Assembly: GCA_035516255.1 (NCBI GenBank)
Contig: DATJAL010000016.1
Span: 80,629-144,628 of the forward strand
Direction: 5' to 3'
From: Chitinivibrionales bacterium
GTDB lineage: Bacteria > Fibrobacterota > Chitinivibrionia > Chitinivibrionales > FEN-1185
Length of the DNA stretch: 64,000 nucleotides
The translations under genes were made by a program, and so were the position numbers. Below the pieces are notes generated by a model, which was not told the origin of the DNA, did no database searches, and saw only the letters and a list, made by a program, of their open reading frames with translations. The stretch's first letter is position 1; every line of letters begins with the position of its first letter. This document shows positions 3,690 through 60,304 of this stretch, piece after piece.

Positions 3690-4075
3690 CATGGCGCCTG
3701 CCGGTCACGGCACCGGTTCTACCGCTTCGGGTACTTCCAAGGGTCCGTCCCTCCGGTCTCGCCTTCGGCTCGGGCTGCCACGGCGCGAGGCCGCTTCGCG
3801 GCGGCGTCCGGGCAGCGCCGCGCTCCAGCGACGGCCTGCGGTCGCCCCTGGCGCGCGGGCATAATTCCTTCTGCCGCGACTCTTTCCCCCTTATCAAGGG
3901 GGAGGCCGCCGAAGGCGGAGGAGGATGCACCGCAACCAAGGCGTTACGGAAACGCGACGTCCGCAAGGCGGATGCGTTGCGCTTCGCGCGCGTTTCTGTT
4001 TGAAGGGGTGTGGGTGCAGATCGCCGCGCCACCCCAGGGGAAACCACGAAGTGGTTGCCCCACCAGACATTTTTA
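3690..4075. repeat. Composite GC-rich intergenic repeat (family B modules m2-m4 plus a partial module E)
   Basis: Long stretches match 54117-54510, e.g. CCGTCC(C/T)TCC(G/A)GTCTCGCCTTCGGC(T/C)CGGGCTGCCACGGCGCGA, GGCGTCCGGGCAGC, and GGGGTGTGGGTGCAGATCGCCGC. Shorter matches occur at 40575, 44770 and 56555. Confidence 0.75.
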
Positions 4076-7680: not shown

Positions 7681-7762
7681 GGAGGAATAGGATAATGGTA
7701 ATCCGACGGTCTTGAAAACCGTTGCCGGCAACGGCTTGGGGGTTCGAGTCCCTCTTCCTCCG
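7681..7762 (+). tRNA. tRNA-Ser (anticodon UGA)
   Basis: Cloverleaf read by eye: acceptor GGAGGAA/TTCCTCC, anticodon stem ACGGT/ACCGT with loop CUUGAAA, long variable arm GCCG-GCAA-CGGC, and T arm GGGGG-TTCGAGT-CCCTC. CCA is not encoded. Confidence 0.85.
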
Positions 7763-36384: not shown

Positions 36385-36432
36385 CCTCTTCACTCCCCTT
36401 CTCCGATTCGGAGAAGGGGTTGGGAGATGAGG
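36385..36432. repeat. Hairpin repeat, family A (CCTTCTCCGATTCGGAGAAGG core with outer arms)
   Basis: CCTCTTCACTCCCCTTCTCC-GATTCG-GAGAAGGGGTTGGGAGATGAGG. Same family as 45909, 50820 and 56666 and as the flanks of the DUF559 gene. Confidence 0.7.
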
Positions 36433-36437
36433 TCAAA

Positions 36438-37349
36438 ATGGATAATGTAATAGAAACGAAAAACCTTACCAAACGATTCGGCGGCTTCACGGCGGTTGAC
36501 AATGTGTCATTGACCGTCGGCAAAGGCGAGATTTACGGCTTTCTCGGCCTCAACGGCGCCGGAAAGACCACCACCATCCGCATGCTGCTCGGCATGATAC
36601 GGCCGACAAAAGGCGAATGCCTGCTCAATGGTAAAAGGGCGTCGGGCTCAAGCAATAATTTTTGGAACAGCGTCGGATACCTGGTTGAGATTCCCTATTC
36701 CTATCCCGACCTTACCGTGCGCGAAAATCTCGAATTGCTGCGGCATCTCAGGTTTATCGGCGATAAAAAATCGGTCGACAGGGCCATGGAATTCCTCAAT
36801 ATCACACGATACGCCGAACGGCGGGCGAAAGACCTTTCCCTCGGCAATGCCCAGCGGCTCGGACTGGCAAAGGCGCTTTTTCACAATCCCGACATACTCA
36901 TTCTCGACGAACCGGCCAACGGCCTTGACCCCGCCGGCATCGTCGAAATCCGGGAGCTGCTGCTCGACCTTGTGCAAAAGCGCGGGGCCACGGTTTTCAT
37001 TTCGAGCCACATTCTCGGCGAAATTTCAAAGTTCGCCACACGCATCGGCATCATCCACGAGGGACGGTTATTACAGGAATTGACCGCGGACGACCTGGAA
37101 CGCGTGCGCAACAAGCGCCTGCTCGTCGCCGTGCACGACGACAAAGCCGCCCAGGCGGCGCTTTTACAACAGGGGATCGCCGCCAGGCTTGCCGGTGAAG
37201 GGCTGCTGGAAATCACGGCTGACCAAGCCATAACAAATCCGGACAAAATCAACGCGACCCTTGTCAAATCAGACAACGTACCGTCGATGGTAAGGGTCGA
37301 GGAAGAAGATTTGGAATCATATTTTTTGCGGATCATCGGGAAAAATTGA
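36438..37349 (+). CDS. ABC transporter ATP-binding protein (ABC-2/BcrA-like subfamily)
   Basis: Walker A GLNGAGKTTT, signature LSLGNAQRLGLAKAL, Walker B ILILDEPANGLD. ATG at 36438. Confidence 0.9.
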   Translation: MDNVIETKNLTKRFGGFTAVDNVSLTVGKGEIYGFLGLNGAGKTTTIRMLLGMIRPTKGECLLNGKRASGSSNNFWNSVGYLVEIPYSYPDLTVRENLELLRHLRFIGDKKSVDRAMEFLNITRYAERRAKDLSLGNAQRLGLAKALFHNPDILILDEPANGLDPAGIVEIRELLLDLVQKRGATVFISSHILGEISKFATRIGIIHEGRLLQELTADDLERVRNKRLLVAVHDDKAAQAALLQQGIAARLAGEGLLEITADQAITNPDKINATLVKSDNVPSMVRVEEEDLESYFLRIIGKN

Positions 37350-37357
37350 GGCGGACC

Positions 37358-38146
37358 ATGAAGGCATTCTCCGCATCGCTCTGGGCCGAATGGCTCAAGG
37401 TACGGCGCTCGAAGATGTTTGCCGGCATGCTTTCGGTGTTCGCGTTTGTCGGCATCATGATGGGTTTCATGATGTTCGCGGCGCAGCACCCTGAAATATC
37501 CGGACGCTCGCCCGCCCTGGCGGCCAAGACCTCTGCCATCGGCAAGGGCGACTGGCCCAATTTATTGGCGCTTTTGGTGCAGACAATTCTCGCCCTCGGT
37601 GCGATGGGATTCGGCATCGTCACCTCGTGGGTTTTCGGAAGGGAATTCTCCGACCGCACGCTGAAAGACCTGCTCTCCCTGCCCGTTTCGCGGCCCGCCA
37701 TTGTCGCGGCTAAGTTTTTCATCATTCTTGTTTGGAGCCTTATGCTCTCGCTCGCGCTGTTTGCAGCGGCACTCTTGACCGCTCTTGCGCTGCCCATTCC
37801 CGGATGGTCGCCGGGTCTTGTAATGCCCGCATTTAAAATATTTTGCCAAAGCGCGCTGCTCACCATCCTGCTCTGCACGCCGGTTGCTTTGATCGCGGGC
37901 ATAGGCCGGGGATACCTGCCGCCGATCGGCTTTGTCGTCCTGACGCTCATCATCACGCAGCTTGTCGGCATAGGAATGCCGGTCGTCGCCGTATATTTTC
38001 CATGGGCCTATCCCGCGCTCGTGAGCGGCGCGGCAGGAGACGCGGTCCCGAAACCGGGCGCCGCAAGCTTGGTTATCTACCTTTCCACCGTTGCGGCGGG
38101 ATATATTCTGACCGTGGCATGGTGGCAGAATGCCGATCATACGTAA
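37358..38146 (+). CDS. ABC-2 type transporter permease
   Basis: About 6 TM helices directly after the ABC-2 ATPase. The ATG at 37358 is preferred; the TTG at 37346 overlaps the upstream stop. Confidence 0.7.
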   Translation: MKAFSASLWAEWLKVRRSKMFAGMLSVFAFVGIMMGFMMFAAQHPEISGRSPALAAKTSAIGKGDWPNLLALLVQTILALGAMGFGIVTSWVFGREFSDRTLKDLLSLPVSRPAIVAAKFFIILVWSLMLSLALFAAALLTALALPIPGWSPGLVMPAFKIFCQSALLTILLCTPVALIAGIGRGYLPPIGFVVLTLIITQLVGIGMPVVAVYFPWAYPALVSGAAGDAVPKPGAASLVIYLSTVAAGYILTVAWWQNADHT

Positions 38147-38584
38147 CTCACCCCCCTGCCCCCTCTCTTAAAAAGGAGGGGGAGAAGGTTAACAATGATC
38201 AAGAGTACCGCCCGACTGCCACGAAAAAATCAGGCGCACGCAGAATCTGTTCTCCGGACCATGCTTCGCAATAGAAAATGTGGAGGGTTCAAATTCGTTA
38301 GGCAATATCCGTTCACTCTTCAGGACATGGATCGCAGCAGGTTCGTGGTGGTTGATTTCTATTGTCACGCGGGGAAACTCGCGATTGAATTGGACGGGGC
38401 CGCACACGGAGGAAGGGAGAAAATCGACAAGTATCGGGAGAATTTGCTTGCCTATAAAGGAATCCGTTTCCTCCGCTTCAAAAACGATGAGGTTTTCACG
38501 AATTTGACCCTCACGCAAACGATTCTAAACCATCTGCCACCAACTCCGCCTCTCCTCTCTTTCAAGAGAGGGGTTGGGGGTGAG
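38147..38584 (+). mobile_element. DUF559 gene cassette bounded by 9-bp perfect terminal inverted repeats and family-A-type hairpins
   Basis: The left end is CTCACCCCC (38147-38155) followed by hairpin CCCCCTC/GAGGGGG. The right end is hairpin CCTCTCT-TTCA-AGAGAGG followed by GGGGGTGAG (38576-38584). GC is visibly lower. The cassette is wedged between two genes of one cluster. Confidence 0.5.
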
Positions 38585-38614
38585 TTCAAAGGAGCATGCC
38601 ATGAAGGCATTTAA
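38195..38614 (+). CDS. DUF559 domain protein (Vsr-like PD-(D/E)xK endonuclease fold)
   Basis: ESVLRTMLRNRKCGGFKFVRQYPF...VVDFYCHAGKLAIELDGAAHG...D..R...L...GIRFLRFKNDEV matches the DUF559 pattern (compare E. coli YcjD-type proteins). The C-terminal tail is translated from the right-hand repeat. Confidence 0.85.
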   Translation: MIKSTARLPRKNQAHAESVLRTMLRNRKCGGFKFVRQYPFTLQDMDRSRFVVVDFYCHAGKLAIELDGAAHGGREKIDKYRENLLAYKGIRFLRFKNDEVFTNLTLTQTILNHLPPTPPLLSFKRGVGGEFKGACHEGI

Positions 38615-39338
38615 GCCTTATGTAGTTTTCATGATCGCCGCAATGTCAACCTATGCCGCCGCCATTACCCCGGAAGAAATCCTGGCCGCCATGGACAGAA
38701 ACCGCGACTACGGCACCATTTCCTATATCGCAACCATGGAGATCCACGTGGGCGGCGAGGTGCGCACCAAGACCATGAAGGCCGTCGCCATGGGCACCGA
38801 AAAGGCGCTCGCGGAATTCACCAACGCCGAGGACCGGGGCACCAAATACCTCAAGATCGGCAAGGAGCTTTGGATCTACTTCCCGTCGGAGCAGGACGTG
38901 GTGAAGATCTCAGGGCACATGCTCAAGGAGGGCATGATGGGGTCCGATGTTTCGTACGAGGACGCGCTCGAGTCTGACGTGCTGCGCAAGAAATATTCGG
39001 CCATCCTCAGCGGCGAGGAGGAATTCGAGGGCCACGCCTGTTACGTGCTGACGCTCGAGGCAACGGTCAAGGACGCACCGTATTACAAGCGAAAAATGTG
39101 CGTCGACAAGACCATGTATATCCCGTGGCAGGAGGAGATGTACGCCAAGAGCGGCACGCTGCTCAAGGTGTCGCACGTGCTTGACGTCAAGAAAATAGAC
39201 GACCGGCATTTCCCGGTGAAAGTCGAGATGGTGAACAAGCTCCGCAAGGACACCAAGACCGTTTTTGAGATGAGCGACGTTCGCTTCGACGTAAAGACGG
39301 ATCCGGCAATCTTTAGTTTACAGAATTTGCAGCGGTGA
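38601..39338 (+). CDS. LolA-like outer-membrane lipoprotein-sorting protein family member
   Basis: The ATG at 38601 follows AAAGGAG, with a signal peptide. ILAAMDRNRDYGTISYIATMEIH.....RTKTMKAV...EKALAEFTNAEDRGTKYLKIGKELWIYFPSEQ fits the LolA_like fold family often encoded next to FtsX permeases. Confidence 0.7.
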   Translation: MKAFKPYVVFMIAAMSTYAAAITPEEILAAMDRNRDYGTISYIATMEIHVGGEVRTKTMKAVAMGTEKALAEFTNAEDRGTKYLKIGKELWIYFPSEQDVVKISGHMLKEGMMGSDVSYEDALESDVLRKKYSAILSGEEEFEGHACYVLTLEATVKDAPYYKRKMCVDKTMYIPWQEEMYAKSGTLLKVSHVLDVKKIDDRHFPVKVEMVNKLRKDTKTVFEMSDVRFDVKTDPAIFSLQNLQR

Positions 39339-40758: not shown

Positions 40759-40833
40759 CGGGGTGTGGCTCAGTCTGGCTAGAGCACGTGGTTTGGGACC
40801 ACGGTGTCGTAGGTTCAAATCCTATCACCCCGA
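40759..40833 (+). tRNA. tRNA-Pro (anticodon UGG)
   Basis: Acceptor CGGGGTG/CACCCCG, anticodon stem CGTGG/CCACG with loop UUUGGGA, T arm GTAGG-TTCAAAT-CCTAT. CCA is not encoded. Confidence 0.9.
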
Positions 40834-40843
40834 TTTTCTCTTT

Positions 40844-40920
<77 letters not shown>

Positions 40921-45764: not shown

Positions 45765-45907
45765 TTGATTTTTGTCCTCAGCATGGTATAATGAATGATG
45801 CGGGAAAAAGAAATTTCAGCTCCGGCACATGATGACCCTATCCCCCTTGCAGGGCATTGGCGGACTGAATGAGCCCGGGTTCCCCGAAAGACCCGGGCTC
45901 TTTTTTT
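45765..45907 (+). ncRNA. Candidate small RNA or terminated leader (promoter to intrinsic terminator, transcript about 110 nt)
   Basis: TTGATT (45765-45770), a 16-nt spacer, then extended -10 TGgTATAAT (45784-45792). The terminator stem GAGCCCGGGT/ACCCGGGCTC (45871-45900) is followed by T7 (45901-45907). No convincing ORF lies inside. Confidence 0.3.
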
Positions 45908-45908
45908 A

Positions 45909-45968
45909 CCTCACCCCTTTACCCCGCCCCTCTCCATGAGTGGAGAGGGGCGGGGTAAAGGGGTGAGG
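45909..45968. repeat. Family A hairpin, long form: perfect 28-bp stem with a 4-nt loop
   Basis: CCTCACCCCTTTACCCCGCCCCTCTCCA-TGAG-TGGAGAGGGGCGGGGTAAAGGGGTGAGG. Confidence 0.85.
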
Positions 45969-50819: not shown

Positions 50820-50867
50820 GACCTTACCCCGGCCCTCCGGGCCACCCCTCTCCGAATCGGAGAGGGG
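50820..50867. repeat. Hairpin repeat, family A
   Basis: GACCTTACCCCGG...CCACCCCTCTCC-GAATCG-GAGAGGGG. Confidence 0.7.
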
Positions 50868-56554: not shown

Positions 56555-56707
56555 GGAGTTTCCCCGCTTCGCGGGGCCGGGCAGCACCGCGCCCCGGCGC
56601 GGCCTCCAGTCGCGCCTAACGCGCGATATAATTTTCTTTCCGCAAGTTAAACGTTCAGGTCTTTTCCCCTCTCCGATTCGGAGAGGGGCCGGGGGTGAGG
56701 TCTGAAC
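56555..56707. repeat. Family B (m1, m3, m4) followed by a family A hairpin
   Basis: CCCCGCTTCGCGGGG, then CGGGCAGCACCGCGCCCCGGCGCGGCCTCCAG, then TCGCGCCTAACGCGCG, then CCCCTCTCCGATTCGGAGAGGGGCCGGGGGTGAGG (56666-56700). Confidence 0.75.
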
Positions 56708-60208: not shown

Positions 60209-60304
60209 TGGCAGAGAGGGCAGGAATCGAACCTGCCACAGACGGTGTTATCCGCCCGCCACTGGTTTTGAGGACCAGCCGGAACACCAGTTCCAACCCC
60301 TCTG
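60209..60304 (-). tRNA. selC: tRNA-Sec (anticodon UCA)
   Basis: On the minus strand: 8-bp acceptor CAGAGGGG/CCTCTCTG (one G-U), D arm TGGAAC-TGGT-GTTCCG (6-bp stem, 4-nt loop), anticodon arm GCTGGT-CCUCAAA-ACCAGT, a long variable arm, and T arm GCAGG-TTCGATT-CCTGC. It lies directly upstream of selA. The exact ends are uncertain by 1-2 nt. Confidence 0.8.

Follow-up and report, generated by a model that had tools for sequence, protein, structure and literature searches.

Among the short repeats of bacterial genomes, the boxC/PIT/TMECO or 'intrastrand triplex' family has the unit CCCTCTCCC-loop-GGGAGAGGG-NN(N)-GGGGTGAGGG, and its members lie between genes in several copies, alone or in inverted pairs, and readily undergo small deletions that spare a hairpin (Holder et al., 2015; PMC4666352). 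Escherichia coli K-12 holds 23 copies, and related G/C-rich motifs are found in more than 260 prokaryotes. Holder et al. described a raised local variability at the motif, which they regard as a structure-forming source of instability, and explicitly reported that transposase or integrase remnants were not found near it; in the earlier work that they cite, the motif had neither promoter nor terminator activity. These repeats have been linked to local genome instability, with no gene tied so far to their origin or spread. The DUF559 proteins, nucleases of the PD-(D/E)xK class with a Vsr fold, are for their part a very large family of unknown function (8,737 clusters at 50% identity in our search, E <= 0.001). 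We describe here a 64,000-nucleotide stretch of a Chitinivibrionales bacterium (assembly GCA_035516255.1, contig DATJAL010000016.1, positions 80,629–144,628; hereafter the window), in which a DUF559 gene sits in a 438-bp insert between inverted hairpin units. Judged from the unit itself, the window repeat is a member of the boxC/PIT/TMECO family. We propose, with moderate confidence, that the insert represents a class of small, widespread chromosomal elements and has long been inherited vertically, and that in these elements a PD-(D/E)xK nuclease and its cognate boxC-type repeat would form a partnership resembling that of repetitive extragenic palindromes (REPs) and their associated tyrosine transposases (RAYTs).

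The element class consists of a gene for a DUF559 nuclease of about 110–130 amino acids bracketed by inverted hairpin units, each unit having a pyrimidine and a purine arm around a loop, with a second purine block, the 'tip', beyond the purine arm. In the window, each end of the insert carries a tip (CTCACCCC and GGGGTGAG, respectively) and a hairpin of the form CCCTCTC-loop-GAGAGGG. The left terminal unit (38147–38182) abuts the TAA stop codon of an ABC-2 permease gene; it begins with the tip CTCACCCC(C) (38147–38155), followed by the inner hairpin CCCCCTC-loop-GAGGGGG (38159–38182), the right arm of which (GGAGGGGGAG) doubles as a Shine–Dalgarno-like sequence for the DUF559 gene. The right terminal unit (38549–38586) comprises the hairpin CCTCTCT-TTCA-AGAGAGG(GG) (38554–38573, with the arms CCTCTCTT and AAGAGAGG at 38554–38571), a TTG spacer and the tip GGGGGTGAG(TT) (38576–38586). 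A first-pass annotation made from the sequence alone had pointed out a perfect 9-bp terminal inverted repeat with a hairpin just inside each end, and its sequences and coordinates are correct (CTCACCCCC at 38147–38155 and GGGGGTGAG at 38576–38584); the symmetry extends to 22 nt at 82% complementarity (38145–38166 and 38565–38586). The same annotation placed the gene inside a split copy of the hairpin repeat, which has to be revised: two complete units flank it instead. An insertion of the gene into the loop of one solo hairpin was also rejected, given the complete inner hairpin on each side. As for the 'visibly lower' GC content of the insert, it is indeed lower than that of the window (0.507 compared with 0.568), albeit modestly (14.5th percentile of 438-nt windows), which makes it a weak sign of foreign origin. 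The third-position GC content (GC3) of the DUF559 gene, 0.57 against 0.66–0.86 in the neighbouring genes, is more distinctive.

The DUF559 gene (38195–38614, + strand) encodes 139 amino acids and lies, as first annotated, between the stop of the ABC-2 family permease gene at 38146 (37346–38146, + strand; PF12730, E = 9e-25) and the start of a LolA-like or TP_0789-like lipoprotein-sorting gene at 38601 (38601–39338, + strand; PF17131, E = 8e-51), in what is an ATP-binding cassette (ABC)-transporter/LolA operon. Its product matches Pfam PF04480 over profile positions 4–105 of 109 (E = 2.1e-22, 79.5 bits for a cutoff of 20.6). Public gene callers start the gene at Met23, giving 117 residues; we take 38195 as the real start because the homologues begin MIKKTARLLRK. 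The catalytic core spans approximately residues 1–112. From about residue 116 onwards the chain is the translation of the right repeat and then of the spacer beyond it, and its stop codon (38612–38614) lies inside the start of the LolA-like gene, as the first-pass annotation had already read it. The ATG of the LolA-like gene falls within this tail, and the corresponding ribosome-binding site (AAAGGAG) begins 4 nt past the right tip.

All of the invariant columns of the family alignment (Glu17, Arg36, Gln37, Asp54, Lys61, Glu65, Asp67, His71, Asp78, Arg81 and Arg94) are present in the window protein, eight of them (Asp54, Lys61, Glu65, Asp67, His71, Asp78, Arg81 and Arg94) being invariant across 15 homologues. 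When compared with solved structures, the family profile matches the Neisseria DUF559 structure (PDB entry 3HRL, E = 2e-27) and the catalytic domain of the homing endonuclease I-Bth0305I (E = 2.5e-5). The AlphaFold (AF2) model of the window protein has a mean pLDDT of 74, which falls below 50 for the tail residues 122–139, so that the last 18 residues are predicted to be disordered. Foldseek searches with this model retrieved 3HRL first (TM-score of 0.76 on the target) and then 3R3P, that is I-Bth0305I (E = 1e-3, probability 1.00), followed by PvuRts1I, the endonuclease domain of the R2 retrotransposon and TnsA. Nucleases of mobile elements (I-Bth0305I, the R2 endonuclease domain and TnsA) are thus among the neighbours of the fold. 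The Vsr family model is not matched by the window protein, which matches only DUF559 and, below threshold, MTES_1575. No cytosine-5 methyltransferase lies beside the gene, its neighbours being the ABC-transporter and LolA-like genes; no intron or intein context surrounds it; no Y1 transposase family was matched; and a six-frame HMM (hidden Markov model) scan of the 64 kb found no second DUF559 gene. A reading as a defence system found no support either, with a marginal DpdF match as the only PADLOC result and a sub-threshold match to the YcjD model in NCBIfam.

The window holds six repeat units at five intergenic sites. The four hairpins without an open reading frame (ORF) listed by the first-pass annotation are real. 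One of them (45909–45968) is a perfect two-tier solo with a 28-bp stem, in which both tips surround a single inner hairpin (−39.8 kcal/mol, z = −14.4), and it carries a boxC-type unit on both strands. A degenerate two-tier solo was found by the hairpin scan in the spacer between the FtsX permease and ABC ATPase genes (36385–36432; −15.4 kcal/mol, z = −4.1), with the sequence CCTCTTCACTCC / CCCTTCTCC-GATTC-GGAGAAGGG / GGGAGATGAGG. The other two are a left-type unit at 50820–50867 (z = −4.7), where a degenerate tip CCTTACCCC and a small GC hairpin precede CCCCTCTCC-GAATC-GGAGAGGGG and no right tip is present, and a right-type unit at 56666–56702, which reads CCCCTCTCC-GATTC-GGAGAGGGG-CCG-GGGGTGAGG and matches the canonical boxC/TMECO unit. 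In a comparison with Table 1 of Holder et al. (PMC4666352), both this unit and the right unit of the insert (38549–38586) fit the boxC arrangement of CCCTCTCC(C), a short loop, GGAGAGGG, a spacer of 2–4 nt and GGGGTGAGG. The solos share a subtype with a CCCTCTCC stem and loops of 5–6 nt (GATTC/GAATC or ATGAGT), represented by three clean units. Relative to dinucleotide shuffles, the window is enriched in GAGAGGGG (8 occurrences for 1.8 expected, a number reached by no shuffle), in CCCTCTCC-N2-8-GGAGAGGG (3 for 0 expected) and in GGGGTGAG (6 for 1.7 expected, reached by 1 of 100 shuffles). At gathering thresholds, the Rfam matches in the window were all tRNAs, and none of the Rfam families fitted the hairpins.

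A conserved intrinsic terminator precedes the perfect solo at 45.9 kb, which begins 1 nt past its T-run. This terminator and the flanking genes are kept in six relatives that lack the ~60-nt solo, including the closest one (89% amino-acid identity in the flanking β-CASP protein). By parsimony, the solo is most simply a gain in the lineage of the window, and no target duplication is visible around it. Just upstream, a candidate small RNA (45785–45907, + strand) would start from the −10-like sequence GGTATAAT, run for about 100 nt and end at a strong intrinsic terminator (AGCCCGGGTTCCCCGAAAGACCCGGGCTCTTTTTTT); its sequence, which lies between the genes for an outer-membrane protein (OMP) β-barrel and the β-CASP protein, is conserved in five or six relatives and has no Rfam match at the gathering threshold.

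The association of gene and repeat recurs well beyond this genome. A genome scan with the closest subfamily only, a sample that leans to proteins with RFVVVDFY or KFVRQY motifs, yielded 22 loci from Fibrobacterota, Bacillota, a Zambryskibacterium of the candidate phyla radiation (CPR; 39% GC), an unclassified 34%-GC genome and many Alphaproteobacteria, and at nearly all of them boxC-type units stand at both ends of the DUF559 gene. Over 21 loci (from Fibrobacterota, Bacillota, Zambryskibacteria, the unclassified 34%-GC genome, Devosia, Martelella, Mesorhizobium, Sinorhizobium, Aurantimonas and E. coli K-12), 42 of the 60 CCCTC..GAGGG hairpins fall in the 4.9% of sequence that adjoins the DUF559 ends (binomial p = 5e-41), together with 38 of the 80 tips (p = 3e-28); other DUF559 genes thus carry the flanks that the first-pass annotation had asked of them. 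The repeat also leaves its mark on the proteins. The ORF routinely extends into the right unit, and 20 of 131 small representative DUF559 proteins end in a peptide that the hairpin encodes (PLS..GEG..GVR or one of its frame variants), compared with none in the two controls (0/240 and 0/131). At locus L104 the element exactly fills the junction between the MFP and MacB genes, and the Devosia loci have two DUF559 genes within 10 kb.

The DUF559 gene is rare on plasmids (seven records) and phages (three records), which gives no support to a spread by these routes. One plasmid copy, from Synechocystis (L100), has an ordinary unit and a BREX PglX neighbour. On two other cyanobacterial plasmids (L101 and L102), the unit on either side of the DUF559 gene is comparable in kind but has another sequence, CCCCCCAATTCTGGGGGG plus CTAGGGGGGC, with arrays of G-run units bearing CTAGGGGGGC tips at 1290–1450 and 1840–2080 in L101 and at 1330–1460 and 1830–2010 in L102. 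This is what a co-evolving pair of enzyme and repeat would look like, although the three cyanobacterial sequences are too few to decide whether protein clade follows repeat type. DUF499/DUF1156 genes neighbour the L101 and L102 genes, which appear to lie inside restriction- or defence-like clusters.

In E. coli K-12, the DUF559 gene is ycjD (b1289), between sapF and fabI. The last codons of YcjD (RSPSP*) read into a CCCTCTCCC...GAGGGGG hairpin, which is followed by a duplicated 3′ fragment of ycjD and then by TMECO #9. The gene is present in approximately 3,378 of 5,426 complete E. coli genomes and missing in about 38%. In a spread sample of genomes, the number of boxC-like BLAST matches per genome has a median of 17 in ycjD-positive genomes (n = 37) and 8 in ycjD-negative ones (n = 23), in line with the relation between repeat number and DUF559 presence that the first-pass annotation expected. 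The sapF–fabI interval was also considered as an empty site, and rejected as such: ycjD-negative genomes carry the eefRABCD efflux operon there, a replacement that has no bearing on mobility. We found no literature linking DUF559 or ycjD to boxC/PIT/TMECO repeats, in a search that left most subscription journals outside; both families, of repeats and of proteins, had been described before, and their systematic pairing appears to be unreported. In the ycjD–fabI interval of K-12 (L027, 2790–2900), the partial second ycjD 3′ end (ATGGAGACGGTGCTGGAGAATATTCGGCAAGGTCTGAACCG...) is accompanied by a degenerate hairpin before TMECO #9, and a perfect 17-bp hairpin (TCACCTCATTCTGACAA / TTGTCAGAATGAGGTGA) lies upstream of ycjD.

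The history of the window copy can be followed at the orthologous junctions, for which the LolA-like gene served as the anchor. The closest DUF559 homologues with a readable context all lie just upstream of a LolA-like gene, as in the window. The element is intact in the window, L007 (where the terminal inverted repeat reaches 35 bp, 34 of them matching), L043 and L103. Its gene is frameshifted in L091, and the element is reduced to a 3′ fragment with the right unit in L041, to half a unit in L047, to the right tip in L042, to both tips (TAACTCACCgctGGGTGA) in L045/L046 and to five nucleotides (TAACTCAC) in L033. In L038, L039 and L048 there is no trace of it and no repeat unit, and L031, L032, L036 and L037 have an unrelated repeat of ~130 nt instead. 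This comparison of permease/LolA-like junctions, with its no-trace sites, tip remnants and broken elements, bears out the earlier suggestion of a secondary insertion into an operon. The pairwise identities of DUF559 and LolA correlate (r = 0.78, 15 pairs; two of the six DUF559–LolA pairings are inferred and one further, P0006 with P0021, was borne out afterwards in the contig itself), with DUF559 diverging approximately twice as fast (56–66% identity to the window protein, compared with 75–80% for LolA). Because relatives share the locus and the two genes co-diverge, the window element reads as old and vertically inherited, with no sign of recent mobility. Moreover, CTCTCTTTCAAGAGAGGGG and GGGGTGAGTT of the right unit are invariant in eight lineages (the window, L007, L043, L091, L103, L041, L044 and, at a different locus, L005), only the 2–3-nt spacer between them varying, whereas the adjacent 150 nt of coding DNA has a mean identity of 57% in seven of the eight (L005 left out). 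The DNA repeat is therefore more constrained than the gene that it flanks.

The left unit is found in tandem (CTCACCCCCGGCCCCTCTCTTRAAAGAGAGGGG) in two of the relatives, as three copies right after the FtsX stop in L103 (509–640) and as two to three copies in L043 (1870–2090). The ~130-nt repeat (GGGGAAGTATCCCCCTCGC...CTACCCCCTC...GTTGCAAGAATCA) is located at 3800–3930 in L031, 3650–3780 in L032, 2290–2420 in L036 and 860–990 in L037; it does not occur in the window, and may represent a further family of repeats or else a non-coding RNA.

How does this locus compare with described systems? The boxC/PIT/TMECO repeats have the same unit sequence (PMC4666352), the difference being that the units here bracket a nuclease gene, as they do with E. 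coli ycjD beside TMECO #9. The likeness to REPs (or REPINs) and RAYTs is one of organization. Inverted copies of a short GC-rich palindrome stand on either side of a gene that would be present in few copies, mostly on chromosomes, and be passed on vertically; further copies of the palindrome lie without the gene in intergenic DNA, often by terminators, and its sequence differs between lineages. By analogy, the single copy in the 64-kb window, the rarity on plasmids and phages and the co-divergence with a neighbour would match the way in which RAYT genes behave. However, the window enzyme is a Vsr-fold PD-(D/E)xK protein and not an HUH/Y1 transposase of the IS200/IS605 kind, so that covalent strand transfer is not expected; boxC-type units lack the GTAG/CGTC tag; and their sequence is common to several phyla, whereas REPs are usually lineage-specific. 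Miniature inverted-repeat transposable elements (MITEs) and insertion sequences with terminal inverted repeats also share the terminal symmetry, the short derivatives without a gene and the presence/absence polymorphism between relatives. The element has in contrast no DDE or other known transposase, its only ORF being DUF559, and no visible target-site duplication, and each of its terminal repeats is a hairpin with a mirror-repeat tip whose orientation to the gene varies.

On the protein side, the homing endonuclease I-Bth0305I carries a separate DNA-binding region besides its catalytic domain. It shares its catalytic fold with the window protein and sets an example of a selfish element served by a Vsr-fold nuclease (a 'mobile intron protein' according to PDB entry 3R3P and a group I intron homing endonuclease according to a review), but the window protein is a bare domain of 139 residues in an operon spacer, between inverted hairpin units. 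Vsr and the Caulobacter protein VsrA belong to the same superfamily and fold, and some sources annotate proteins of the window type as very-short-patch-repair endonucleases; the window gene differs in being dispensable and repeat-flanked, with neither a match to the Vsr model nor a cytosine methyltransferase nearby.

Our reading starts from what is observed directly: an architecture found across distant phyla, a repeat better conserved than the gene it flanks, the insertion and decay polymorphism and the presence/absence difference of one solo. We infer the action of the DUF559 protein on the repeat and every step of the chemistry. The nuclease would recognize the conserved unit by its sequence, and probably also as a hairpin or cruciform on single-stranded or supercoiled DNA, and would nick it at the tip or close to it. 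Units would then be copied, deleted or collapsed by the replication and repair machinery of the host, through template switching, hairpin bypass and short-homology recombination. We know of no strand-transfer chemistry for a Vsr-fold nuclease, and it is for this reason that host repair is invoked for the copying. In a full element the two inner hairpins are direct repeats of each other because each is a palindrome, and two-tier solos could arise when they recombine and the gene is lost, or from a unit pair copied alone. More tentatively, and with somewhat less than even confidence, we extend this proposal to bacteria as a whole: the small DUF559 nucleases, YcjD included, may be the cognate enzymes of the boxC/PIT/TMECO repeats, in a second partnership of the REP/RAYT kind that would do without HUH transposases and rely on a Vsr-fold nicking nuclease recognizing hairpin-plus-mirror-repeat DNA. 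If the two are paired, repeat and protein each gain a function that can be tested. This would account for where the repeats, orphans since the 1990s, come from and why they are unstable, as well as for the function of a family with thousands of members, and repeat-disseminating 'domesticated' nucleases would not be confined to the HUH/RAYT class. E. coli, with ycjD and 23 TMECO units, would be an immediate experimental system, and there would be good reason to annotate these hairpins, together with the spurious peptide tails that they add to ORFs.

Several observations weigh against this proposal. The element and its orthologues have a CCCTCTCT stem with a TTCA/TGAA loop, which is a different subtype from that of the window solos; because of this difference, the resident DUF559 gene may not be the partner of these solos, unlike the situation in L006, where the solos match the subtype at the DUF559 ends. 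The left end of the window element is decayed relative to the orthologous elements, in which the left unit has the consensus AACTCACCCCCGGCCCCTCTCTTRAAAGAGAGGGG: the window copy departs from it, and its left inner hairpin folds like shuffled sequence (z = −0.8). No target-site duplication is visible, the flanks TAA|CTCAC...GTGAG|TT showing no direct repeat, and a defined cleavage site cannot be read from the element junctions. The orientation of the units relative to the gene varies, with outward tips in the window and L007, inward tips in L104 and a tandem arrangement in L006. The loci behind the enrichment at DUF559 ends are phylogenetically dependent, many being from Devosia, though the pattern spans phyla. 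In E. coli, ycjD-negative genomes still hold 1 to 18 boxC-like matches, and the Mann–Whitney p-value of 3e-9 for the difference in number is nominal only, as the split follows phylogroups and is confounded by phylogeny; the repeats are scarcer where the gene is missing, yet they clearly persist there. Caulobacter VsrA, the only experimentally studied DUF559-domain protein that we found, has a proposed role in T/G mismatch repair (PMC12907096). Finally, the copy numbers of repeat and gene are those of the 64-kb window and not of the whole genome. The observation made by the first-pass annotation is thus confirmed and its interpretation, an autonomous element with non-autonomous derivatives, partly supported: the topology is general and the 45.9-kb solo is missing from six relatives, but the copy at hand is ancient, partly decayed and of another subtype than the solos.

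The same data can be read without any mobilization in trans, the element being a self-contained selfish cassette and each solo a full element that collapsed by inner-hairpin recombination or hairpin-bypass deletion. We regard this as unlikely, albeit with points in its favour. The LolA junction shows a graded series of decay (intact, frameshifted, truncated, half a unit, tips only, five nucleotides), a two-tier solo made of a tip, one hairpin and a tip is the exact product of inner-hairpin recombination, and boxC pairs of E. coli tend to shed their internal parts yet keep their hairpin potential (Holder et al., 2015; PMC4666352). At 45.9 kb, a full element may have been inserted and then collapsed. 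Nevertheless, solos far outnumber genes (four sites for one gene in the window, and 23 TMECO units for one ycjD in E. coli K-12), the window solos have in common a hairpin and loop (GATTC/GAATC) unlike those of the resident element, and none of the solo sites showed a full element of recent insertion. It is rather improbable that the repeats came first, for other reasons, and were invaded in the manner of homing, with a free-standing, homing-endonuclease-like DUF559 gene cutting empty units and being copied in by repair, so that the units would be landing pads of the gene and not products of it. I-Bth0305I, a Vsr-fold homing endonuclease, is the second-best match in both structure and sequence, the gene always lies between repeat units, and the repeats persist in E. 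coli without ycjD, all of which would suit such a scenario; however, two complete units flank the gene rather than the halves of one split unit, and the 139-residue protein lacks the kind of separate DNA-binding domain that I-Bth0305I has. Moreover, in the Chitinivibrionales clade the gene keeps to one locus and co-diverges with its neighbour, with no spread among other units, and the no-trace junctions (L038, L039 and L048) hold no repeat unit into which it could home.

A host function has, in our view, an equally small probability. DUF559 would then be a housekeeping or repair nuclease, with Vsr-like mismatch processing or structure-specific processing as examples of its task. The hairpins would influence the expression of the gene through its RNA, serving in the operon as mRNA stabilizers, ribosome-binding site or insulators, and the solos would be unrelated REP-like regulatory elements whose sequence is alike through convergence or common descent. 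Indeed, the ORF is intact and its catalytic residues are invariant over about 40–45% amino-acid divergence at one locus, the purine arm of the left unit provides a Shine–Dalgarno-like GGAGG upstream of the ATG, and a DUF559-domain protein, VsrA, has been proposed to act in mismatch repair (PMC12907096). Yet the gene is dispensable, lost repeatedly in close relatives and from about 38% of E. coli genomes, it has no adjacent cytosine methyltransferase, and work cited by Holder et al. (PMC4666352) found no promoter or terminator activity for the motif. A role in RNA also leaves unexplained the inverted symmetry at the DNA level, the invariance of the loop sequence and the triplication of the left unit in L103, as well as the pairing in the 34–39% GC genomes, where the motif is otherwise rare. 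Mere coincidence, in which GC-rich REP-like hairpins gather in variable intergenic spots where small horizontally acquired genes also tend to lie, is hardly credible. The LolA junction does host the unrelated ~130-nt repeat in other relatives, and the sapF–fabI interval of E. coli is a known variable site. Against this stand the enrichment (p = 5e-41), which is specific to the DUF559 ends within each 10-kb locus, the fusion of the ORF to the repeat, the pairing in AT-rich genomes and the invariance of the repeat beside a fast-evolving gene.

The surroundings of the element in the window call for a few further remarks. The genes for the ABC ATPase and the ABC-2 permease (36438–38146) form a pair bracketed by the degenerate solo at 36385–36432 and the left end of the DUF559 element. 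This pair is present in the FtsX–LolA interval of the window, L031, L037, L038 and L048 and absent in L007, L032, L033, L036, L091 and L103; its repeat-mediated gain or loss is possible. In the FtsX–ATPase spacer, where the window has the degenerate boxC-type hairpin, L031 carries a long perfect palindrome of another kind (1880–1935; GGTGCCATGTAGGGGCGCAAAATTTTGCGCCCCTACATGGCACC). Finally, the window contains tRNA genes at 60212–60304 (− strand), 40759–40917 (+ strand) and 7681–7762 (+ strand), one for selenocysteine and three ordinary, of which two ordinary ones stand in tandem just downstream of the ABC-transporter/LolA operon.

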